From a virus (taxonomy: Duplodnaviria > Heunggongvirae > Uroviricota > Caudoviricetes): a stretch of 37,432 bases of DNA. The notes under the pieces are model-generated. The model was not told where the DNA came from. It searched no databases and worked only from the letters and a program-made list of their open reading frames with translations. This document shows, one piece after another, positions 1-36,732 of this stretch. The DNA lies in the IMG/VR virus record IMGVR_UViG_2724679140_000013. One strand, written 5' to 3'. Position 1 is the stretch's first letter; each line of letters begins with the position of its first letter. The translations under genes were made by a program, and so were the position numbers.

Positions 1-1002
1 TTACCCTCTATTGTCAAAAGGGTTCAATTCAACAGCAGCCTCTAAATGACCTGGAGCAAAATGCGCATAACGCATAGTCATTTTTATATCGCTATGCCCC
101 AGTATTTTTTGCAACACAAGAATATTTCCGCCCCGCATCATAAAATGACTGGCAAACGTGTGACGTAGCACATGAGTTAATTGCCCATCAGGAAGCTCGA
201 TCTTCGCTCTCTTAATTGCAGCGTCAAAAGCCTCATAACATGGTGAAAATAGCGCTCCTCGTTTTTTAGGAAGCATAGCCTGCAATTGAGGTGAAATCGG
301 TACAGTGCGGTTCTTCTTTCCTTTAGTTTTGACAAATGTGATTCGACCGGGCAGTACTTGAGATTGTTTTAATCCTTCTGCTTCACTCCACCGAGCACCA
401 GTCGCAAGCCCAATACGAACAACAACCCCCAAATCTTTATTCCGTGACTCATCACACGCAATCAGAAGGCGTTCAATCTCATCTACATACAGAAACGCCA
501 GTTCCTTTTCTTCCTCACGAAACTTGCGAATACCAGTCAGGGGGTTTTCACCAGACCACTCTCCAAGGCGCTTCAGTTCGGCAAAAACAGCATGTAGATA
601 TGACTGCTCACGATTAACAGTTGCTTCACTAAGTTTCTTCTTCCCCTTTGGATTCCATTCACCTGATAATCGCCGCTCCCTGTAGGTGGCAAACATATTT
701 TTATCAAATTGAGAAGCAAACGGATCACCTAACCTAGAACAAATCGCCTCGAGTTTAGCCCTTCGCTCTTCACCGGAAGACAGTGTTTTACCGTACATAT
801 CAAACCAGCGAGCAACCAACTCGGAAAGGTGGGGGCCAGAATCATCCTGAAACTCGCTCCCCAAATTACTATTCATTAAACGGCGCTCATAAGAGAGCGC
901 CTCACCCTTAGTCGCAAACTGTTTACGAATACGCTTTCCCGATGCTCCATACGGGTAACACTCGCAAAGCCATTTACCAGTAGGTAGTCTTCGAACACTC
1001 AT
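1..1002 (-). CDS. int: tyrosine recombinase / phage integrase
   Basis: 333 aa; C-terminal catalytic region with HVLRHTFAS...LGHSDIKMTMRYAH (R-H-R-Y integrase signature); ATG at 1002, stop at 1-3. Confidence 0.9.
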   Translation of the reverse strand: MSVRRLPTGKWLCECYPYGASGKRIRKQFATKGEALSYERRLMNSNLGSEFQDDSGPHLSELVARWFDMYGKTLSSGEERRAKLEAICSRLGDPFASQFDKNMFATYRERRLSGEWNPKGKKKLSEATVNREQSYLHAVFAELKRLGEWSGENPLTGIRKFREEEKELAFLYVDEIERLLIACDESRNKDLGVVVRIGLATGARWSEAEGLKQSQVLPGRITFVKTKGKKNRTVPISPQLQAMLPKKRGALFSPCYEAFDAAIKRAKIELPDGQLTHVLRHTFASHFMMRGGNILVLQKILGHSDIKMTMRYAHFAPGHLEAAVELNPFDNRG

Positions 1003-1007
1003 TCTAA

Positions 1008-1394
1008 TTAAGACTTAATCCATCCCATCATCAACATCAGAGATACCGCCGTATTAGAAACAGACTGATTTTGATATACTTTTCTATTCTTTTTTTTATC
1101 TGCGAAAGGCTCAAAGGCCATATCAAGTTGTTTAGTCAATTCCTCTGCCAACAATTTGAGGTCATCCATATTTTTAACTTGTGTAGACAATTCTGGTGTA
1201 AGTCTTCCTTGATTATAAAGTACAGCTATAAAGTCAGCCGAGGTAGCCAATTTGTTTTTATAAGATGCCTTTTGCCACTCAAGGGCGTTTGCCTTATGTA
1301 ATGTTCCACCTTCATACCATTCAGAGGCATAACCATGAGATGCAAAAACAAACAAGATATAAAAAAGGACTAATTTTAAATAATTACGCTGCAT
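1008..1394 (-). CDS. hypothetical secreted protein (N-terminal signal peptide), low-GC cargo
   Basis: 128 aa; hydrophobic N-terminus LKLVLFYILFVFASHGYA then polar mature region; AAGGA SD before ATG at 1394; AT-rich compared with phage core. Confidence 0.6.
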   Translation of the reverse strand: MQRNYLKLVLFYILFVFASHGYASEWYEGGTLHKANALEWQKASYKNKLATSADFIAVLYNQGRLTPELSTQVKNMDDLKLLAEELTKQLDMAFEPFADKKKNRKVYQNQSVSNTAVSLMLMMGWIKS

Positions 1395-1425
1395 ATCATA
1401 TTTCCTTGCATGTTATTTAACGTAT

Positions 1426-2073
1426 TTACACAAAATAAATTAAAAATGTAATCACCATACCCAAAATGAGTCCAACAATGAACACAATCAAAAATTCTTT
1501 AGTATATTCTGTTAATAGTTCACTAATGCAGTGTCTATTTTTAATATTGCCATTGCTCTGAGATATATTTTTATTAGTCTGCTGATCTAACCACGACAAT
1601 GCAGATTGCAACTGAGAACGAGTAAGATCGTTTAAACGGCCTGTACCGAAATTGATATGGCAATATCGAAGAAGTTTTTGTCTAATTTCATTACTTTCAC
1701 TGTTGCGAAGAAGGAGGCTTACAAGTAATTTACAGGCGTCATGATCCTTGTGTCGGTCAAGCATCGCATTGAGAAAGCTAATTGCGGTTGGATACTGATT
1801 CACCGTCATCTTATCGACACTATCAACACCGATTTCAGCATGAAGTTTACGCCAAACAACAAACGATTCTTCCTTGCTGGCATCAACAATCTTGTCAACC
1901 AACAACTTCAGTTGATGTCGCTGAGCCTTAACTAATGGGCGCTCATCAGGCCTACCAGAAGGGATTGCAATATTGACTGTATGCCGATCATCATATCGCT
2001 CTATCTGAATATTCTTTTCGTGGTAATCACGCCCAGCAACGCGATTGTCTGAACCGTTTGAGTTGACCGCCAT
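1426..2073 (-). CDS. hypothetical C-terminally membrane-anchored protein, co-transcribed with repressor
   Basis: 215 aa; single C-terminal TM helix FLIVFIVGLILGMVITFLIYFV; GGAGGTGA SD 6 nt upstream of ATG at 2073, immediately after repressor stop at 2092-2094; low GC. Confidence 0.6.
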   Translation of the reverse strand: MAVNSNGSDNRVAGRDYHEKNIQIERYDDRHTVNIAIPSGRPDERPLVKAQRHQLKLLVDKIVDASKEESFVVWRKLHAEIGVDSVDKMTVNQYPTAISFLNAMLDRHKDHDACKLLVSLLLRNSESNEIRQKLLRYCHINFGTGRLNDLTRSQLQSALSWLDQQTNKNISQSNGNIKNRHCISELLTEYTKEFLIVFIVGLILGMVITFLIYFV

Positions 2074-2091
2074 GTCACCTCCCTGCTAGAG

Positions 2092-2505
2092 CTAACCCTT
2101 AGTTTCGTTATAGTCACGACCAGCAATACGATGGCCCTTGCCAGAAGCTCTTATTGTACCTGGAGCCAAACTACCAGCGGTCAAGGCTGCCAAAGCCGCC
2201 GCCTTAACAGCCAAAGGTGCAGAGCGATATATTTTAATTAGCTCAATCTCATCTTCAGTGGCATTAGGGATGCCATGTGCACGACTACCAGAAAGTATGT
2301 AATAGACATCTACTCCGCAGCGCCTTCCCAAGAGATTCAGCATAGCTGCATCCGGTGTAGTCACCCCTCTTTCATACTTCCCCCAAGTCTTTGTAGAAAC
2401 TTCAAAAATAGACGCCATATCATCCTGAGTCATGCCAGTTTTCTCTCGTTCCTCCCGTAATCGACGTCCAATAATGACACTTAATTCCTCTTTTTCTGTT
2501 GACAT
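2092..2505 (-). CDS. HTH (XRE-family) immunity repressor, C/CI-like
   Basis: 137 aa; HTH segment GMTQDDMASIFEVSTKTWGKYERG; divergent from the early operon; sits between int and early genes as in P2. Confidence 0.8.
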   Translation of the reverse strand: MSTEKEELSVIIGRRLREEREKTGMTQDDMASIFEVSTKTWGKYERGVTTPDAAMLNLLGRRCGVDVYYILSGSRAHGIPNATEDEIELIKIYRSAPLAVKAAALAALTAGSLAPGTIRASGKGHRIAGRDYNETKG

Positions 2506-2564
2506 AGGAAGTTTTGTTCCCTAAAGTAATTTCACGTGCAATTAGATGATCACAATGTACCACT
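2506..2564. promoter_or_regulatory. divergent lysogenic/early promoter-operator switch region (Pc/Pe equivalent)
   Basis: 59-bp gap between divergently oriented repressor and first early gene; contains repeated tcacgtg / tcacaatg elements; position-based inference. Confidence 0.45.
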
Positions 2565-2771
2565 ATGAATCAAGTTAGTCACGACACCAAGTCACGCATT
2601 CCGCGTAATACCGCCACAGGTCCAAGACTGGCACTTAGGCTGTCCCTCGAGGAGCGAGCCATCATTGATGAAATGGCCGCCAAAGAACAACGCTCATCCT
2701 CTAACATGGCGCGCATGATCTTCCTTCGAGGCCTGGAGCTGACCCAGAAAGAACAAAACAAATCTTCCTGA
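2565..2771 (+). CDS. small early protein at the cox/apl position, possible ribbon-helix-helix DNA binder
   Basis: 68 aa; first gene of rightward early operon; segment LALRLSLEERAIIDEMAAKEQ resembles RHH fold pattern; assignment by position. Confidence 0.5.
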   Translation: MNQVSHDTKSRIPRNTATGPRLALRLSLEERAIIDEMAAKEQRSSSNMARMIFLRGLELTQKEQNKSS

Positions 2772-2787
2772 TCAGGAGGTTAGTGGG

Positions 2788-2991
2788 ATGTCAGGTATAA
2801 CCATCAATATCAATGTGAATGCCCCCTATGTATCCCTGCAGAAATATGCAGAGATAACAGGTATCCCTCTTAATACATGCAAAAAGATGTTGGCTGACGG
2901 TCGAATTATTATCCGACCAAAACGCGCCAAAATGGAAAAGCCAGAAGTAAACCTTGTGGCAATGCTGAAAGACGCTATCGCTAACAGTTAA
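2788..2991 (+). CDS. small early protein with HTH-like segment
   Basis: 67 aa; GGAGG SD upstream of ATG; YAEITGIPLNTCKKMLADGRI resembles an HTH. Confidence 0.5.
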   Translation: MSGITININVNAPYVSLQKYAEITGIPLNTCKKMLADGRIIIRPKRAKMEKPEVNLVAMLKDAIANS

Positions 2992-2997
2992 AACAAC

Positions 2998-3360
2998 ATG
3001 AGCATCGCTATGAATAGAAATGCCACCTCCTCACGTTCTAAATACCGCAACGGGGCGGAACGCCATGCTAACCGTTTCGCTACCAGTGCATCACGCAGCA
3101 GCTCTCGCTACAGCCTGAGCGAAACACACGCAACACCGGATGGCCACGCTGTAAAACAAATCGGCGAGCATGCCTGGCTGATTGAGAAAGCTGGAATCGT
3201 GGTCCATAAATGCCCACGCAATCCGTTTACCGGAAACCGCATTTTTGCATTGAGCTGCGGCGACAATCAATTCGGGCAGGATTTCACATTATACGAAGCA
3301 CTTCGTACGGTTGATCGTCTGCTTCGCGGGCAAAGTTTTATTAAACAGGCTGATTTATAA
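2998..3360 (+). CDS. hypothetical early protein
   Basis: 120-aa ORF, tightly packed in early operon; start uncertain. Confidence 0.45.
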   Translation: MSIAMNRNATSSRSKYRNGAERHANRFATSASRSSSRYSLSETHATPDGHAVKQIGEHAWLIEKAGIVVHKCPRNPFTGNRIFALSCGDNQFGQDFTLYEALRTVDRLLRGQSFIKQADL

Positions 3361-3370
3361 CAGGTGAGTT

Positions 3371-3658
3371 ATGACCAAAGAGCATACACAAAGTGTATTT
3401 ATCCGTTTTATTGATTTTCGCGGTGAACTGTTATTACGCGCATCCGCTATTGATGGAGTGGCTCCGGCGGGTAAAAACGGAGCCGACGAAGCCACTTACG
3501 TTTATCTGAACGGCACGCGACTGCTTGTGGAACTTCCGTACCAGACCGTACGAGAAATCATTAGTGGAGCTGAAAAGGCACGCCAGGCTAATGGCGATGA
3601 ACCTTATATCGAAATTATTTGTATGGATTCAGAAGCAGAAATTCAGAAAGCAGATTAA
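3371..3658 (+). CDS. hypothetical early protein
   Basis: 95-aa ORF in early operon. Confidence 0.5.
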   Translation: MTKEHTQSVFIRFIDFRGELLLRASAIDGVAPAGKNGADEATYVYLNGTRLLVELPYQTVREIISGAEKARQANGDEPYIEIICMDSEAEIQKAD

Positions 3659-3669
3659 AGGGCGTTGCG

Positions 3670-3912
3670 ATGGGCAAAGAATATAAAACTCTCATTAACA
3701 AAGCACTTGAGCGTTTTTATTTTCGCTTAAGTGCATCAGGCGCTCATGCTGAACGTGCAGCCCGTGACTCATTGACCAGGGCAATCCGGAGTCTGTATGA
3801 CGTGGCTTTTTACGCTGATGATCTGGATGCACTTAACGAACTTTCCGAGCTGATCTGTGCCGCAGAATGCGGGGAACATATTGAACCGTATAAGCTGGGG
3901 AATATTGCATGA
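3670..3912 (+). CDS. hypothetical early protein
   Basis: 80 aa from ATG at 3670 (in-frame upstream ATG at 3619 overlaps previous gene). Confidence 0.45.
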   Translation: MGKEYKTLINKALERFYFRLSASGAHAERAARDSLTRAIRSLYDVAFYADDLDALNELSELICAAECGEHIEPYKLGNIA

Positions 3913-4022
3913 GTATATTTATCTCATGGCTTGTTCTGATTATTTCGGTGGCCTGCGCCATTGGGATTATGCGAATTATTCATTCAGTAAAAAAGATTGA
4001 ACGCTTTTTCACTGGCGAATAA
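3909..4022 (+). CDS. possible 37-aa single-TM membrane peptide
   Basis: ATG at 3909 overlaps upstream stop (ATGA coupling); translation MSIFISWLVLIISVACAIGIMRIIHSVKKIERFFTGE; below ORF-track size cutoff. Confidence 0.3.
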   Translation: MSIFISWLVLIISVACAIGIMRIIHSVKKIERFFTGE

Positions 4023-4108
4023 CAGAGCAAATAAAACCACAGGTTAAATAAGAAAATGTAAAAACAATCCGCATTCGCGGAGGTATTCGCACACGCCAAG
4101 GAGGCGTA

Positions 4109-4312
4109 ATGGCAATTAAGCATTTTCCTGTCGTTCGTTTTACCTCCAGAGGACGTGAATACGAAGTCGACGAACGCCTGATTACCACAATCGACAAACA
4201 CCGTTCAGAAAAGGATGCACATCACATCTATCTCACTGACGGCACTTACTTCTGCGCCACGAATGTGGTGCGGGTGAACCTTATCCGACAGGTACAGGAG
4301 TCACGCAGATGA
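4109..4312 (+). CDS. hypothetical early protein
   Basis: 67 aa; strong AAGGAGG SD upstream of ATG. Confidence 0.5.
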   Translation: MAIKHFPVVRFTSRGREYEVDERLITTIDKHRSEKDAHHIYLTDGTYFCATNVVRVNLIRQVQESRR

Positions 4313-4554
4313 CCATTCTGGACTATATCGCCGCCAATCCGGGGTGTAGCGGTGGAGAAATCGCCGCAGCACTGAATACCCCAACCACAGCCATTAATGC
4401 GGAGTTACGCCGACTCTGGCGCAGCGGTTCAGTCATAAGAAAAGAGCGCAAAACAGGCGGTCGCTTTTCTTACCAGATAAACCCGATGCCGTTCGGGTGC
4501 GGCAATCCACTTACCAACATGTTTAACCAGCTACTGAAGGAGGCCAGAGCATGA
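4309..4554 (+). CDS. hypothetical small protein, possible winged-helix DNA binder
   Basis: 81 aa; start overlaps upstream stop; GCSGGEIAAALNTPTTAINAELRRLWRSG resembles wHTH. Confidence 0.5.
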   Translation: MTILDYIAANPGCSGGEIAAALNTPTTAINAELRRLWRSGSVIRKERKTGGRFSYQINPMPFGCGNPLTNMFNQLLKEARA

Positions 4555-4850
4555 GCGCCATCAACCACCAGGAATTACGCGAACTGGCGATTGACCTGCA
4601 ACGAATGGCAACGCATCAAAAATTACTGGCGTTTCGCGCAATGCTCTCGCCGTCTGCCGTGCTGGCACTGCTGGATGAGCTGGAGCACGCCAGAACCATG
4701 TCTCCAGCCATTCGCCTGGCGCTCCATCATGAAATCGCTGATTTCTGCGCTCCACTGGGTTCGCCTGGTGAACCAGAAACGCCGGAAGCAATGCAACGAG
4801 AGCTACTGCAACGCATCGACAAGGTTTTTGATTTCTTCCTTAACCAGTAA
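4551..4850 (+). CDS. hypothetical early protein
   Basis: 99 aa; translationally coupled to upstream gene. Confidence 0.5.
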   Translation: MSAINHQELRELAIDLQRMATHQKLLAFRAMLSPSAVLALLDELEHARTMSPAIRLALHHEIADFCAPLGSPGEPETPEAMQRELLQRIDKVFDFFLNQ

Positions 4851-4861
4851 AGGACCGCGAT

Positions 4862-5065
4862 ATGAACAAAAAGACCTGGTTTCGCGCATACATGTGGGCG
4901 CTGGTATGCGTCCTCGTTTCTCTCATTCTGTATGCAGGACTACTCCCCCGAATGATTTCATCAGACAGCTCCTTCTTGGTATTGCTGGGCATTTTCATTG
5001 CCATGCTGTACCCGGCAGGCGTTGTTCGCCTTTTCAGTAAGTACATCAAGGAAATCAAACAATGA
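4862..5065 (+). CDS. small two-TM membrane protein, possible partner of downstream SPFH protein
   Basis: 67 aa; two hydrophobic helices (WALVCVLVSLILYAGLL and FLVLLGIFIAMLYPAGVV); stop overlaps start of next gene. Confidence 0.5.
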   Translation: MNKKTWFRAYMWALVCVLVSLILYAGLLPRMISSDSSFLVLLGIFIAMLYPAGVVRLFSKYIKEIKQ

Positions 5066-5892
5066 AGAAACTCAAACTCTTTCAGATTATCCCGCTTTTT
5101 GCCGCCATCCTGCTGGTTGGTTGCGATCGCGTTGAGCCAGGTAATGTGGGCATCAAAGTCAACAAACTGGGCGACGACAAAGGCGTCGGTGAAGTGGTTG
5201 GCGTTGGCCGCTACTGGACAGGCTGGAATACAGAGGTTTACATCTTCCCGACCTTCAAACAAATGAAGACCTACGATGAGCCGTTCAGCTTTCAGATGAG
5301 TGACGGCACAACCATCGGCTATCACATCGGTGTGGCCTACAAGGTTGATCCATCCAAAGTTACTACAGTGTTTCAGACCTACCGCAAAGGCGTGGACGAC
5401 ATTACCGACACTGACCTGCGCCAGAAGATCGCCGATGCACTCAACCGACTGGCCAGCAAAATGACCACCGATAAATTCATCGACGGTGGCAAGTCTGAAC
5501 TGCTGGATTCAGCACTTAAAGATATTCAGGAAGAGATGACCCCCATCGGTATTCAGGTCATGAGCCTCTCTTATGTCGGTAAACCGGAATATCCGCCAAC
5601 CGTTATCGACAGCATTAACGCCAAAGTCACGGCAAACCAGAAAACCCTGCAACGCGAACAGGAAGTCAAGCAACGCGAAGCAGAAGCCAACATGTTGCGC
5701 GCAGAAGCTGCCGGACAGGCTGATGCCATTCGCACAAAAGCCCAGGCTGAAGCCGACGCCATTCGTTTACGCGGTGAAGCTCTGCGCCAGAATCCCGGCG
5801 TTATGGAGCTGGAAGCAATCAACAAATGGAACGGCACGCTGCCGCAATACATGACCAGCAATACCGCTGTTCCGTTTGTTCCGGTGAAGTAA
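5062..5892 (+). CDS. SPFH/band-7 (HflC/prohibitin-like) domain lipoprotein
   Basis: 276 aa; lipobox LLVGC after signal peptide; SPFH-like core followed by Ala/Glu/Arg-rich coiled-coil (QREQEVKQREAEANMLRAEAAGQADAIRTKAQAEADAIRLRGEA) and C-terminal WNGTLP motif. Confidence 0.75.
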   Translation: MKKLKLFQIIPLFAAILLVGCDRVEPGNVGIKVNKLGDDKGVGEVVGVGRYWTGWNTEVYIFPTFKQMKTYDEPFSFQMSDGTTIGYHIGVAYKVDPSKVTTVFQTYRKGVDDITDTDLRQKIADALNRLASKMTTDKFIDGGKSELLDSALKDIQEEMTPIGIQVMSLSYVGKPEYPPTVIDSINAKVTANQKTLQREQEVKQREAEANMLRAEAAGQADAIRTKAQAEADAIRLRGEALRQNPGVMELEAINKWNGTLPQYMTSNTAVPFVPVK

Positions 5893-6057
5893 TTAAACCC
5901 GGCCAGTGAAAATCGCTGGCCGGAGCAGTATCAGGATTTTTTAGTATGCCGTTCTCACAAAAAAACCGCTTGCCATGCCGCAATCAGTCAGGTTACATTT
6001 CCGCTGCACCTCATAAAACGGGTGCCGGGATTGGAACCCCGCAGACTAACAGAGCGC

Positions 6058-6080
6058 ACAACCGCGCCAGCGGTTTTTTT
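6058..6080 (+). terminator. putative intrinsic terminator within the SPFH-to-A noncoding stretch
   Basis: short GC hairpin accgc-gcca-gcggt followed by T7 run. Confidence 0.4.
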
Positions 6081-6259
6081 GTGCGTACCGTATCGCCACG
6101 TCTTTTTCGCGTCAAAATTATGGTGGGGCGTACAGGGCCAGCATCAGCTGGGCCGGGTCCTCTGTTAGCCGGTAGTTCCAACCCTGTACGTCTCACCACC
6201 CCGAGCTTGGAACCTCTGGATGGTGAGTTTTCAAAACTGACTAACAGAGAGGCCACACC

Positions 6260-6487
6260 ATGGCAAACCGCAAACAGCGCGCATACGCTGCGCGTCGTCA
6301 CATCCAGACTGAAATCGACCGCAGACTTTCCCGCGCATTCCGCGTCGCTAAAATCATGCACATCAACATGCTGCATGAGCGTAGCTGCGAACTTTCAAAC
6401 CTCTACTCATCCGCTGTTTTCAGCTATCTGGCGGATGATCTGCGCGAGCTTCAACAGCTCATCCAGCAGCAAAACAAACTCCATTAA
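6260..6487 (+). CDS. hypothetical small basic protein
   Basis: 75 aa; GAGAGG SD upstream of ATG. Confidence 0.45.
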   Translation: MANRKQRAYAARRHIQTEIDRRLSRAFRVAKIMHINMLHERSCELSNLYSSAVFSYLADDLRELQQLIQQQNKLH

Positions 6488-6559
6488 TTCCTGTTCCGGG
6501 CCTTTCCTGCACCTTGCGGCGGGAGGCCTTCGCACATCTGTAACAAGAGGATTGCCGCA

Positions 6560-6925
6560 ATGATTCTCGCCAACGACTTTCTTGAATACCTGCTCAACAC
6601 AGAACGTGATCTTGCCGCTCGCGTGCGTGATCGTTATGACATGTACCTGAAATCCCTGCCTGTACCGCAACTCGCTGACGGAAAAATTGTTATTGATGGT
6701 CGCTACATGATTGACAGCCACGAGGGAAATTACAGGCTTTACCGCATTGAAGGTGGCACCCCGTCCGTTATTGGCATTTACCAGCGCCCATCCTCTGCAA
6801 TCGTCGATGTGATTGCCGACAGCATCCGCATCACACATCGCCATGCCGACACAGAAGACACCGTGCTGGAAATTCAGCGGCTGGCTGCCGTCTGCCGCGA
6901 CACCCTGAATGGCATGACGAAGTAA
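6560..6925 (+). CDS. hypothetical protein preceding replication gene
   Basis: 121-aa ORF immediately upstream of A. Confidence 0.5.
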   Translation: MILANDFLEYLLNTERDLAARVRDRYDMYLKSLPVPQLADGKIVIDGRYMIDSHEGNYRLYRIEGGTPSVIGIYQRPSSAIVDVIADSIRITHRHADTEDTVLEIQRLAAVCRDTLNGMTK

Positions 6926-6931
6926 ATCACT

Positions 6932-9754
6932 ATGACGGCAGAGTACATCAGGGACTGGCAACAGCCGCGCCACGCAGTGGGACGTGAAGGAACGGGGATC
7001 CCCGTTCCTGAATCCGCGCTTTCCTCCTGGCTGGATGCCTACCGGGCAGAGAACGAGCGCCGCCAGGAAATGGCTGATGCGGCGTTCTCCGCCACGCCGC
7101 TGGGCAACCTGATTAATAAAAGCCTGGATGCACAGGAAAAACAGGACAAAACCATCACACTGGCAGGAGACGCCAGAAAACAGGTACGCGGTGCGGTGGA
7201 TGAAGCCATGGCCTCGCTGCGCCTGCTGCCGTCCTATCTGCGCGATCCGCTTATTCGCCACCTCTCCTTCCTGCGCAAAAAACAGGAAGCCGATCGCCGG
7301 AAAGGCAAAAAGAGCTGGCAGGCTGAACGCTACGCGCGCGGAACCCTGCGCAAAATATTCGAACGTCTGGACCGCACCGACCACCGCTGGCTGACACCGG
7401 GTTATCGCTCCCTTGCCGGACGCGAACGCCTGGATGATTTGCTTTACCTGCCGCAGCTCAACAAGCACCAGATACAGACGCTGGCCACCATGACGGCGGC
7501 GATGTTCAGCAGCACCTTCGAAAAACTCTGCGATGGCTTTGGCGCGACTGATGGCGAGCTGACCATGGAGGTAACGCTGAAGGCGTATCAGATGCTGGCC
7601 CGCATGGCGTTACACCTGCACGCCATGCCTCCGCATTATGACGCACTGACAACAGACAAAGACCGGAGGAACGAACCGGACACGGAGTTGCTGCCGGGCG
7701 CAATCCTTCGCCTGACCTGTGCGGAATGGTGGAAACGCAAACTGTGGCTGTTACGTTGCGAGTGGCGGGAAGAACAACTCCGCGCCGCCTGTCTGGTTTC
7801 CAGAAAAACATCGCCCTATCTGAGCCAGGACGCGTTAAGCGAGTTTCGAGCACAGCGCGAGAAAACACGCGATTTCCTGAAAAGTTTCATGCTGGAAAAC
7901 GAAGACGGGTTCACGATTGATCTCGAGACGGTGTATTACGCGGGAGTAAGTAATCCGGTTCATCGTAAGGCAGAAATGATGGCCACCATGAAGGGGCTGG
8001 AACTTCTGGCCGAAGCCCGTGGCGACAAAGCGGTGTTTCTGACTGTCACCTGCCCGTCAAAATACCACGCCACAACAGAGAACGGTCATCCGAATCCCAA
8101 ATGGAACGGGGCCACCATGCGCGACTCCAGCGATTACCTGGTTAACACGTTTTTTGCGGCGGTCCGCAAGAAACTGAACCGCGACGGCCTGCGCTGGTAT
8201 GGCATCCGCACGGTGGAGCCTCACCATGACGGCACCGTGCACTGGCATATGATGGTCTTTGCTCATCCGGAAGAAATCGACACCATTGTGTCCCACACCC
8301 GCGATATTGCCATTCAGGAAGATCGTCACGAGCTGGGTGATGATATTACCCCACGCTTTAAGGCGGAGTACGTCGACGGCTCAAAAGGCACACCGACCAG
8401 CTACATCGCCACCTACATCGGGAAAAACCTGGACAGCCGTGCCGTGGATGGCATCGACCCGAAAACGGGCAAGCCACGCGTTGACCACGAAACCGGAAAA
8501 TCAATGGCCGAGAGCGTGGAACGCGCCATCGGCTGGGCGCGCCTTCACCGGGTCCGCCAGTTCCAGTTCTTTGGTATCCCCTCCCGTCAGGTGTGGCGTG
8601 AACTGCGCCGCCTTGCCAGCCAGATGGCTCGCAACCCGGAAGGACCGCAACGGCTGAAGGATGACGCAATGGACGCGGTTCTTGCTTCCGCTGATGCCGG
8701 ATGTTTTGCCACCTACATAGAGAAACAGGGCGGCGTACTTGTTCCACGCAAGGACTACCTGATTCGCACCGCCTACGACCTCGCAGATGAGCTGAACGAT
8801 TACGGTGAACAGAGCGTACAGATTTACGGGATCTGGTCACCGCTCATCGGGGAGTCTTCCCGCGTATGCACGCATCCGGACAACTGGAAGCTGGTAAGAC
8901 GCAAACCGGAAGCGGAAGACAGCGCCCGCGAAAATGGTTTTGACCTTCAGGGCGGCCCTGCCGCCCCTTGGACTCGTGGCAATAACTGTCCCCGTATACA
9001 GGAAACGGGCAACAACGGGACAGAACAGCCGGAAGAACGGCCAGCACCGTGGCCGCAGCTTCCTGACGGCGTTGACGTGAATGAATGGATGCGCTCACTG
9101 AAACGGCACGAACACCGGGCGCTGATGCGTTCGCTGCGTGACAAACAGGCAAAAAACAGCAGTGATGAAATGCAGAACTGGACACAGAGCCGCAAACAGC
9201 CACAGCCTTTGCCTGATAACCACGAGTTACTCGCTAAAGAATGGCGGGAGTCTGCTGAATCTCTCGGCCTGCATATCGGTGAACAGCAGATGCAGCACCT
9301 GTTACGGGGCGGCAGTCTGTACGTTGACGGCAGCATCATTGCACCGCAGGGATTTGAAATTGTACGCAAACCGGATACCCGCCCGGACAGCCGAATCACG
9401 CAGCTCTGGCAGCGCCTGAGCCGTAACCACGGCGTAAGCAGCACGGAGATCCGCCATAACCCGGTCGCCAGCTATCTGGAACAGCTGGGGGCATCAGACC
9501 CCGAAGCCGCCGCACGCCTGGCATCCACACTTCAGCAAGACCAGAACACCATGAAAACACCCGTTACCGTGCTTTCTGACATGCTGCGCGCCATCCGCGA
9601 CGCAGAGCACGCACAGAGAATCAGTGAAACCACTGAACGCGCCCGCCGCAAAGCAGACCTGCTGCGGGGTGGCCTGACCAGTGGAAACAAAAAACAGACA
9701 GAAACGGGATTCACAAATCCCGTAAATGAGCAAAAAACGCGCCGCGATATATGA
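6932..9754 (+). CDS. A: rolling-circle replication initiator (P2 gpA family endonuclease)
   Basis: 940 aa; HUH-type motif EPHHDGTVHWHMMVFAHP and downstream tyrosine motif YIATYIGKN; last early gene as in P2; longer than P2 A (about 760 aa) through a C-terminal extension. Confidence 0.85.
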   Translation: MTAEYIRDWQQPRHAVGREGTGIPVPESALSSWLDAYRAENERRQEMADAAFSATPLGNLINKSLDAQEKQDKTITLAGDARKQVRGAVDEAMASLRLLPSYLRDPLIRHLSFLRKKQEADRRKGKKSWQAERYARGTLRKIFERLDRTDHRWLTPGYRSLAGRERLDDLLYLPQLNKHQIQTLATMTAAMFSSTFEKLCDGFGATDGELTMEVTLKAYQMLARMALHLHAMPPHYDALTTDKDRRNEPDTELLPGAILRLTCAEWWKRKLWLLRCEWREEQLRAACLVSRKTSPYLSQDALSEFRAQREKTRDFLKSFMLENEDGFTIDLETVYYAGVSNPVHRKAEMMATMKGLELLAEARGDKAVFLTVTCPSKYHATTENGHPNPKWNGATMRDSSDYLVNTFFAAVRKKLNRDGLRWYGIRTVEPHHDGTVHWHMMVFAHPEEIDTIVSHTRDIAIQEDRHELGDDITPRFKAEYVDGSKGTPTSYIATYIGKNLDSRAVDGIDPKTGKPRVDHETGKSMAESVERAIGWARLHRVRQFQFFGIPSRQVWRELRRLASQMARNPEGPQRLKDDAMDAVLASADAGCFATYIEKQGGVLVPRKDYLIRTAYDLADELNDYGEQSVQIYGIWSPLIGESSRVCTHPDNWKLVRRKPEAEDSARENGFDLQGGPAAPWTRGNNCPRIQETGNNGTEQPEERPAPWPQLPDGVDVNEWMRSLKRHEHRALMRSLRDKQAKNSSDEMQNWTQSRKQPQPLPDNHELLAKEWRESAESLGLHIGEQQMQHLLRGGSLYVDGSIIAPQGFEIVRKPDTRPDSRITQLWQRLSRNHGVSSTEIRHNPVASYLEQLGASDPEAAARLASTLQQDQNTMKTPVTVLSDMLRAIRDAEHAQRISETTERARRKADLLRGGLTSGNKKQTETGFTNPVNEQKTRRDI

Positions 9755-36429: not shown

Positions 36430-36516
36430 TGGTACCCGGAGCGGGACTTGAACCCGCACAGCGCGAACGCCGAGGGATTTTAAATCCCTTGTGTCTACCG
36501 ATTCCACCATCCGGGC
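36430..36516 (-). tRNA. leuZ: tRNA-Leu (anticodon UAA)
   Basis: 87 nt; reverse complement reads GCCCGGATGGTGGAATCGGTAGACACAAGGGATTTAAAATCCC...GGGTACCA with anticodon loop TTTAAAA. Confidence 0.95.
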
Positions 36517-36528
36517 TCGGGAAGAAAG

Positions 36529-36602
36529 TGGAGGCGCGTTCCGGAGTCGAACCGGACTAGACGGATTTGCAATCCGCTACATAACCGCTTTGTTAACGCG
36601 CC
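36529..36602 (-). tRNA. cysT: tRNA-Cys (anticodon GCA)
   Basis: 74 nt; reverse complement GGCGCGTTAACAAAGCGGTTATGTAGCGGATTGCAAATCCGTC...CTCCA. Confidence 0.95.
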
Positions 36603-36656
36603 AAATTCTTCAGGCCTTTCAGCCAGACATCCGCTTGACGCCGATGTCTTTTAAAC

Positions 36657-36732
<76 letters not shown>

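Follow-up and report, generated by a model that had tools for sequence, protein, structure and literature searches.

SPFH proteins whose structures have been solved assemble into cages that confine a patch of membrane (PMC12478178). The closest described counterparts of the locus treated here are the HflK/HflC cage around FtsH, the operons in which an SPFH protein is encoded together with an NfeD protein, the YdjI system of Bacillus subtilis, and two SPFH proteins of phage or prophage origin, MbpS of Kayvirus and PM0222 of Pasteurella multocida. The locus is a pair of genes at 4862-5892 on the + strand of a viral DNA stretch of 37,432 nucleotides (nt; IMG/VR record IMGVR_UViG_2724679140_000013; "the window" below means this whole stretch). 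The upstream gene encodes a two-transmembrane (TM) hairpin protein of 67 amino acids (aa), and the downstream gene encodes an SPFH lipoprotein of 276 aa. Both genes are already annotated in Escherichia phage P88 and RefSeq and catalogued in PHROGs, and the novelty implied by an earlier reading of the bare sequence (the original prediction) was overstated. What is new here is the description of an SPFH lipoprotein predicted to be periplasmic, of a minimal hairpin carrying a loop motif and distinct from NfeD, and of the two as an early-gene cassette across phage lineages.

The HflK/HflC cage (PDB 7vhp, 7wi3, 9cz2) likewise combines an SPFH domain with a long coiled-coil helix and a conserved C-terminal tail. 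It is the best sequence-level match of the phage protein among solved structures, and it stands on the periplasmic face of the inner membrane, where the phage protein is also predicted to be. However, the identity is 17-18%, and the phage protein scores far under the family cut-offs: the NCBIfam equivalogs for HflC and HflK (TIGR01932 and TIGR01933) give 25.7 bits against a cut-off of 134.4 and 23.5 bits against 159.4. The phage anchor is a lipid or a signal anchor, whereas HflK and HflC are anchored by a TM helix. In place of the HflK/HflC hetero-pair, there is one SPFH gene with a dedicated two-TM partner, borne on a phage and predicted to be expressed early. A second SPFH subunit is not co-encoded, as the neighboring 67-aa hairpin has no SPFH domain. 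The SPFH-NfeD operons (for example QmcA-YbbJ, PDB 8z5g) also encode an SPFH protein together with a small membrane protein that co-evolves with it, and their SPFH fold matches. They differ in that the phage partner has no NfeD or OB-fold domain, its small gene lies upstream and is translationally coupled, and the SPFH protein is a lipoprotein. The words "phage" and "lipoprotein" are absent from the 2009 classification of SPFH and NfeD proteins (Hinderhofer et al., PMC2636767).

The B. subtilis system of YdjI (SamI), YdjG/YdjH and PspA (PMC8581546) provides an SPFH protein that relies on small co-encoded membrane proteins other than NfeD and has an envelope-stress role, which parallels the context of a chromosomal copy of our pair in Dyella described below. 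YdjI is a cytosolic protein that is brought to the membrane, whereas export and a lipid anchor are predicted for the phage protein; the partners in the two systems were not found to be related in sequence, and no pspA gene lies near the phage pair. In Kayvirus, the SPFH membrane protein MbpS has a small membrane protein, MbpV, encoded just upstream, as in our pair, but the identity is about 25%, the anchors are TM helices, the partner has one TM helix and no loop motif, and the genes are in the lysis region. PM0222 is also a prophage-encoded SPFH protein, likened here by description; it is reported to occur in outer-membrane vesicles and to be an agonist of Toll-like receptors 1 and 2 (TLR1/2; PMC9872710), while the phage gene sits in a repressed early operon. 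None of the nearest phage genes, P88 gp11/gp12, phiP27 L05, the families phrog_200/phrog_1130, or Kayvirus MbpS/MbpV, has a demonstrated function. Literature searches for functional studies of phage SPFH proteins turned up annotation remarks and hypotheses only, and we found no paper on the pairing or the function.

The 276-aa protein (5062-5892, +) belongs to the phrog_200 family by Pfam and PHROG profiles. Its match to Pfam PF01145 (Band_7) has E=5.7e-31 and 108.4 bits against a cut-off of 23.6, and spans profile positions 2-176 of 176; the match to the phrog_200 "lipoprotein" profile has E=3.6e-112. The protein is 99.3% identical to P88 gp12. The SPFH alpha/beta domain occupies residues 23-209 (5128-5688), as delimited by the full Pfam profile match, the AlphaFold2 model and Foldseek. 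A single long Ala/Glu-rich helix of 65 residues (179-243; 5596-5790) appears in the AlphaFold2 secondary structure; it aligns with the coiled-coil region of HflK and is equivalent to the coiled-coil wall of SPFH cages. The remaining C-terminal tail (5791-5889), containing NPGVMELEAINKWNGTLPQYM, is conserved: phrog_38808 matches residues 216-276, and K255, W256, G258 and P261 are invariant in 13 lineages. Residues 250-276 have a predicted local distance difference test score (pLDDT) below 50, and the tail is disordered in the monomer model; by analogy with solved cages, it may form the cage cap. The model as a whole has a mean pLDDT of 74, with the strands and helices over residues 21-176 at 70-90. 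The SPFH core and the Ala/Glu-rich coiled-coil tail of the original prediction are thus both borne out, and so is its lipobox, which is treated next.

Foldseek finds near full-length matches to prohibitin, HflK/C, erlin, stomatin, flotillin, major vault protein and QmcA-YbbJ, with E from 1e-13 to 1e-7. For prohibitin, HflK/C, erlin and stomatin, E is 1e-13 to 1e-10, and for these four and flotillin the probability is 1.00. Identity is only 13-18% to every solved SPFH family. Since all the families are matched alike at that level, the fold is that of a generic cage-forming SPFH protein. The outward-facing, protease-associated cages (prohibitin, HflK/C, erlin) rank slightly higher. Assignment to a specific SPFH subfamily was considered and rejected, given the HflK/HflC scores far under cut-off and the similar Foldseek identities.

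The protein begins with a lipoprotein signal peptide (5062-5127 with the lipobox and +2 codons). The N-terminus, MKKLKLFQIIPLFAAILLVGC/DRV, has a basic n-region (MKKLK), a hydrophobic core and the lipobox L-V-G-C21 followed by Asp22-Arg23; the Cys21 codon is 5122-5124, and the codon of Asp at +2 is 5125-5127. By the pattern [LVI][ASTVI][GAS]C, a lipobox is present in 108 of 120 cluster representatives, 102 of which have Asp at +2. In 10 representatives from two separate lineages (P0053, P0054, P0057, P0059 and P0115-P0120, with P0116 found on 175 contigs), the Cys is replaced by Tyr, Trp or Phe (G[YWF]DRVEPG) through single-base changes. Where the Cys is replaced, an uncleaved signal anchor is expected, which would likewise hold the protein in the inner membrane. 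Phage homologues that are further removed carry a plain TM helix at the N-terminus. Asp at +2 is the signal for inner-membrane retention (avoidance of the Lol system) in E. coli. Because the Asp at +2, the signal-anchor variants and the TM-anchored homologues agree, the SPFH protein is predicted to be on the periplasmic face of the inner membrane.

The 67-aa protein (4862-5065, +) is a two-TM hairpin of the phrog_1130 family, matching that "membrane protein" profile at E=1.3e-22; the PHROG category is "moron/host takeover". It is 98.5% identical to P88 gp11. Its hydrophobic segments are at residues ~9-28 and ~38-57. The termini are basic (KK..R at the N-terminus and R, K, K, K at the C-terminus), while the loop is near neutral, so by the positive-inside rule, the predicted topology is N-in/C-in with the loop in the periplasm. 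That would place the loop on the same side of the membrane as the SPFH domain. The loop carries the motif PRMISSDSS (4946-4972, +), an instance of P-x-h-h-S-x-x-[DS]-[ST] drawn from a 12-lineage alignment. More fully, the consensus in that alignment is P-x-[LMIV]-[IV]-S-x-x-[DS]-[ST], with Pro29 invariant and Ser33 and Gly43 nearly so. Partners in other phages have 16-45% identity to the window protein, and all are two-helix hairpins with the conserved loop. A profile search retrieved 120 relatives, all named "hypothetical" and none with a Pfam domain, and of 123 sequences collected for the partner family, 110 carry the loop motif. The partner is a family outside NfeD and outside Pfam annotation, defined by its conserved loop.

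The original prediction had likened the pair to bacterial NfeD-SPFH pairs, and as homology this does not hold. NfeD is defined by a C-terminal OB-fold beta-barrel (PMC2636767), for which a protein of 67 residues with two TM helices has no room. The window protein has no Pfam match, a Pfam search at E<=10 with 12 diverse partners gave no NfeD and nothing above gathering score, and the partner profile compared with all PDB chains gave no match to YbbJ or any other NfeD protein.

The two members of the pair evolve very differently. From the lipobox Cys on, the SPFH protein is 99% identical to that of phiP27 and 97.5% identical to that of a P1-like phage over 240 codons, while the DNA of the same stretch is 91% and 87% identical, respectively. 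The ratio of nonsynonymous to synonymous substitution (dN/dS) of the mature protein in these comparisons is 0.011 at dS 0.5-1.0. The mature SPFH protein is under very strong purifying selection. In the same comparison, the signal peptides are 32-42% identical and the partners are 22-43% identical. DNA homology to the cassette of the Shiga toxin (Stx)/phiP27 type begins at 5122, which is the Cys codon. A nearly invariant SPFH protein accompanied by divergent hairpins with little in common except a loop motif fits the loop being the functional contact. The tight constraint on the SPFH protein would fit with self-assembly, perhaps together with a conserved host target. Neither open reading frame (ORF) is a chance ORF, since both are conserved across phages and bacteria and the mature SPFH dN/dS is ~0.01.

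The family is large. With tblastn, 765 phage records show a homologue of the SPFH protein. Those of Stx-converting phages and phiP27 are at 92% identity; a jumbo Salmonella phage follows at 74%, N4-like phages of Klebsiella and Erwinia at ~65% and Vequintavirinae at 48-62%. P1-like phage-plasmids also have one, as do phages of Pseudomonas, Burkholderia, Ruegeria and Caulobacter, and, at ~25% identity, Staphylococcus Kayvirus and Enterococcus phages. The jumbo, N4-like, Vequintavirinae and Bruynoghevirus homologues, at 38-74% identity, are in lineages regarded as virulent; carriage of the gene by obligately lytic phages is stressed in PMC8540360. In the databases, the homologues are named "SPFH domain-containing protein", "lipoprotein" or, historically, "serine protease". 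A DNA-level homologue occurs in 711 of 5426 complete E. coli genomes (13%), at 418 chromosomal and 386 plasmid places, and the full P88-type pair is in 145 complete E. coli genomes. With that many phage records and E. coli genomes, the gene is not new. A first scan of viral contigs returned relatives of at least 93% identity only, and the more distant context comes from annotated phage records and a scan of one genome per bacterial species.

The pairing is sustained over much of this range, in some ten phage lineages and in bacteria of several phyla. In P88, a P1-like phage, Fraca and Cyrano, the SPFH gene is directly preceded by a small gene that overlaps it or ends no more than 10 nt before it. 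The same arrangement is seen in the jumbo phage SE_PL, the N4-like phage Tribble, a temperate phage of Pseudomonas, RpAliso of Ruegeria and phi1026b of Burkholderia. In phiP27, the small gene is an unannotated 62-aa ORF (2262-2450 of the retrieved locus) joined to L05 by an ATGA overlap. Several P1-like records likewise have no annotated feature under the partner match. In Vequintavirinae, one small soluble gene stands between the partner and the SPFH gene. Searching in reverse from three diverse partners, all 10 of the 10 places examined had a Band_7 gene immediately downstream with a 4-nt overlap. In the bacterial scan, a partner with the strict motif was upstream at 43 of 80 SPFH loci, with ~6 more when the motif was relaxed; the loci with a partner are in Enterobacterales, Sutterella, Dyella, Pseudomonas, Cupriavidus, Leptospira, Saprospirales and Dependentiae. 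Homologues at <=33% identity, the furthest removed (Bacteroidota and Cytophagales), have no partner. The partner is missing at two Shigella/E. coli loci, where what looks like the end of an IS1 insertion sequence is right at the SPFH start. These Shigella flexneri and E. coli chromosomal loci (~3200-3480 of the retrieved loci), where the IS1-like terminus was recognized by eye, suggest a decayed prophage. In one cluster representative, P0001 (347 aa, 8 member sequences), a P1-like partner is fused to the SPFH protein in one frame; this could be a genuine fusion or a frameshift in the 20-nt overlap of the P1-like type.

The two ORFs have the positions, sizes and strand given in the original prediction, and the translational coupling it described is seen in the ATGA at 5062-5065, where the stop of the 67-aa gene overlaps the SPFH start by 4 nt. 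Both are preceded at 7-8 nt by an AGGA-type ribosome-binding site: AAGGA at 4850-4854 (+), read from the sequence 7 nt 5' of the ATG of the 67-aa gene, and AAGGAA at 5048-5053 (+), within the 3' end of the 67-aa gene, for the SPFH gene. Relative to the P2-like phage PhiR44_2, the pair is on an insertion of 1105 bp (4851-5955, +) defined by an alignment gap. PhiR44_2 aligns to 3046-4850 (95%) and to 5956-6579 (87%), with 18 nt of its own sequence between. The left border falls exactly after the stop codon of an ead/Ea22-like gene (4850), and the cassette contains both genes with their ribosome-binding sites as well as a strong hairpin. As PhiR44_2 has both flanks without the 1105-bp segment, the pair does not belong to the early core of P2, in agreement with the original prediction that it lies outside the canonical set. 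The hairpin is a GC-rich stem of 11 bp directly after the SPFH stop and inside the cassette (5899-5923, +). Folding the RNA of 5885-5965 gives -23.5 kcal/mol (z=-3.2), and none of 200 shuffles is as stable; the hairpin has no adjacent U-tract and was not called by the terminator scan. Base composition shows no anomaly marking foreign DNA, GC being ~0.49-0.54 over the cassette as in its neighbors, and the search for direct repeats at the junctions gave a single unconvincing 7-nt match, ACAAAAA. In Shae_phiSM, the query is matched in two pieces with 31% coverage, and no SPFH or membrane-protein feature is under the match. The two genes form a discrete cassette that is mobile.

The window represents a prophage of the P2 family, with gene A (replication endonuclease) at 6932-9754 (Pfam Phage_GPA, E=1e-131). 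Over 3045-7600, its identity to Escherichia phage P88 (genus Xuanwuvirus, family Peduoviridae) is 94.6%. Homology to P88 begins at 3045, and 1-3045, containing the immunity and integration region, is unlike P88. The chromosome of E. coli M8 contains the SPFH pair with 100% identity. P88 already has gp11 annotated as "membrane protein" and gp12 as "lipoprotein" or "putative SPFH domain protein", and both genes are annotated in RefSeq E. coli genomes too. A helix-turn-helix (HTH) repressor of 137 aa (HTH_31/HTH_3; 2092-2505, - strand) is faced by a promoter-like site, TTGACA-17-TAAAGT (2499-2527, +), at the head of the early operon. After this site, there are 11 closely packed + strand genes. 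The first encodes an Arc-like repressor, followed by a Cox-like excisionase, and the SPFH pair is genes 10 and 11. The promoter scan found no promoter-like site within 3723-5970. The gene layout of repressor, facing promoter-like site and packed + strand genes supports the placement in the early operon, as originally proposed, and would imply that the pair is expressed only upon derepression. The gene directly before the cassette (4551-4850) is Ead/Ea22-like, a lambdoid accessory-gene family. Lambdoid prophages have the SPFH pair in the equivalent accessory region, between repressor and xis/int and on the same strand. This hints at exchange of accessory regions between lambdoid and P2-like phages.

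A counterpart in Dyella (Rhodanobacteraceae) is chromosomal, and its flanking genes are common to 12 of 13 species. Directly upstream and divergent are genes for a BlaI-type repressor (PF03965) and a BlaR1-type M56 sensor-protease (PF05569), and those for hemerythrin and the small chain of ribonucleotide reductase follow downstream. No phage genes were seen around the pair in the Dyella locus context. The pair is in the position of the regulated target of such sensor-repressor systems, and therefore its gene order suggests that it is induced by envelope stress.

We propose the following course of events. The SPFH lipoprotein would be exported by Sec and kept in the inner membrane by its Asp at +2, with the SPFH domain and coiled-coil helix facing the periplasm. 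By analogy with solved SPFH proteins, it would most likely self-assemble into a ring or cage capping a patch of membrane. The hairpin would most likely be the membrane-embedded partner of this cage, either as an anchor, a fence or a client, contacted via its periplasmic loop. The pair would be made early in lytic development and not from a repressed prophage. Its most likely role would be of an envelope-stress kind, in which it prepares or shields the inner membrane during infection with respect to integrity, proton-motive force or the timing of lysis, rather than setting the lysis-lysogeny switch. We favor a protective membrane role because the pair is present in both virulent and temperate phages, because in the temperate ones it lies in early operons under repression, and because the bacterial copy is beside an envelope sensor. 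Taken as a whole, from a cage on the periplasmic face with its hairpin partner, expressed early, to an action on the envelope in lytic growth, we find the chain to be evenly balanced between right and wrong. Our confidence is higher for the architecture and lower for the physiology.

Several observations weigh against this proposal. The cage is taken over from solved families and the contact between the two proteins is argued from the conserved loop; the AlphaFold2 model is of a monomer, of moderate confidence and built on a shallow alignment. The Arg at +3 may weaken the retention by Asp at +2, a rule that comes from the E. coli literature, and some relatives have Glu, Tyr or Ser at +2. No recognizable partner is present at 31 of the 80 bacterial loci, mostly those of the most distant homologues, and the partner is also absent beside the homologues in phiEa104, Kayvirus, an Enterococcus phage and MME. 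Early-only expression is read from gene layout and a crude promoter scan, and a weak internal promoter or read-through in lysogens is possible. The BlaI/BlaR1 link in Dyella is one of adjacency, and the physiological role is argued from context only. Published accounts describe the role of phage SPFH proteins as unclear (PMC13239085, PMC8540360).

A rival reading, already put forward in the original prediction, is that the target is FtsH, with a phage cage on the periplasmic side mimicking or competing with HflK/C, engaging the periplasmic domain of FtsH and altering substrate turnover in infection. HflK provides the only sequence-level PDB matches (E=1e-4, residues 115-241), the best NCBIfam matches are to HflC and HflK, and the top folds are protease-associated, outward-facing cages. 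The predicted periplasmic orientation is that of HflK/C, and the very low dN/dS is compatible with a conserved host target. On the other hand, the HflK and HflC scores are far under their cut-offs, the identity is 13-18% to every SPFH family, and a single SPFH gene stands in place of a K/C pair. The published contact of HflK Arg191 with FtsH residues 62-64 is not reliably mappable onto the phage protein at 17-18% identity. A scan of the early genes detected nothing of the CII/CIII type. Control of FtsH or of lysogeny is further weakened because the pair is present in phages regarded as obligately lytic, and the pair is also chromosomal in Dyella. We consider this unlikely. Slightly more doubtful is superinfection exclusion during lytic growth, in which an early inner-membrane complex would block DNA entry by a secondary phage or lysis from without. 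T4 Imm and Sp serve as a comparison for this kind of function, without homology. The cassette is early, accessory, mobile and directed at the envelope, it provides a two-TM protein and a membrane-anchored periplasmic protein at the face where incoming DNA crosses, and the partner is in the PHROG category "moron/host takeover". In the Vi01-like phage PhiSH19, the SPFH gene adjoins a gene for a "superinfection exclusion protein" (PMC3220722). However, there is no match to a PADLOC model or to a Pfam exclusion family, and the Dyella chromosomal version has no phage context. Mature proteins that are nearly identical in phages of different hosts and receptors also favor a generic target. A known anti-phage defense system was rejected as an identity for the pair: in PADLOC, the SPFH protein had no match and the partner had a match of 14 bits over 21 residues only (E=0.008), so that nothing meaningful came of it.

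Two further readings carry the least weight. A lysogenic-conversion lipoprotein would be expressed from the prophage and exposed or shed in vesicles, altering host interaction or virulence, as reported for PM0222, which is encoded on a prophage island, occurs in outer-membrane vesicles and activates TLR1/2 (PMC9872710). Prophages of pathogenic E. coli, including Stx phages, commonly have the homologue. But the gene lies far inside an early operon that is repressed and lacks a promoter-like site for itself, the Asp at +2 and the signal-anchor variants point to the inner membrane, and the family is spread widely among virulent phages, which never lysogenise. We judge this reading very improbable. 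Least credible of all is a canonical NfeD-SPFH pair of the QmcA-YbbJ kind acquired from the host. It would account for a small membrane protein co-encoded with an SPFH protein and for the fold match to QmcA-YbbJ (8z5g, E=1e-7). Against it, the partner has neither an NfeD nor an OB-fold domain and is too short, at 67 aa, for the beta-barrel; the Pfam and PDB profile searches contradict it. QmcA faces the cytoplasm, whereas the phage SPFH domain is predicted to be periplasmic.

A broader, tentative view that we regard as possible but doubtful is that the pair is an ancient two-component membrane-cage module, distinct from NfeD and not described before, which bacteria use under envelope stress (with the BlaI/BlaR1 link in Dyella) and which numerous unrelated phage lineages have captured for early control of the inner membrane. 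Under it, the cage might, for example, enclose a conserved host machine such as FtsH or seal the membrane against secondary phages or abortive-infection effectors that target the membrane. Phage SPFH proteins are common (the 765 records and 711 of 5426 E. coli genomes), yet papers up to 2026 call their role unclear. The question is now tractable, as there is a fixed two-gene unit with a partner motif, a predicted location, purifying selection and a Dyella copy near an envelope sensor, on a cassette small enough to delete or to express in E. coli. If the pair controls FtsH, membrane integrity or secondary infection, it would represent a widespread early host-takeover function and a new type of SPFH partner; if not, it is one more accessory gene of the ordinary kind, annotated before. 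The family occurs widely, is under strong constraint and lends itself to testing, and nothing about it should surprise a specialist.

The rest of the window adds some observations on the surroundings of the cassette. Directly downstream, Rfam identifies an isrK-type Hfq-binding RNA at 6006-6080 (72 bits, gathering score 50), flanked by a promoter-like site at 5970-5999 and a terminator-like hairpin at 6060-6075. It also identifies a C4 antisense RNA at 6116-6203 (78.5 bits, gathering score 45), with a weak match to the a1/b1 target at 5993-6045. Next comes a 75-aa gene of the "Derepression protein family" (6260-6487, PF25738). From these matches, 5993-6487 looks like an antisense-RNA and antirepressor module of the P1/P7-c4 type or the isrK type in the early region of a P2-family phage. 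A 205-aa ORF at 5946-6563 (PhiR44_2 3363-3980, hypothetical protein) overlaps the isrK-like RNA, the C4 RNA and the derepression gene and is probably a spurious call. At the left end, the integrase is at 1-1002 (- strand), and two cargo genes, also on the - strand, occupy the gap between integrase and repressor (1008-1394 and 1426-2073). They match phrog_23065 and phrog_5825, whose function is unassigned, and the 215-aa cargo protein has weak membrane-protein matches. In P88, the repressor gene comes directly after the integrase gene, without these two. At the right end, there are three tRNA genes (Leu-taa, Cys-gca, Gly-gcc) at 36430-36732 (-), presumably host DNA flanking the prophage.

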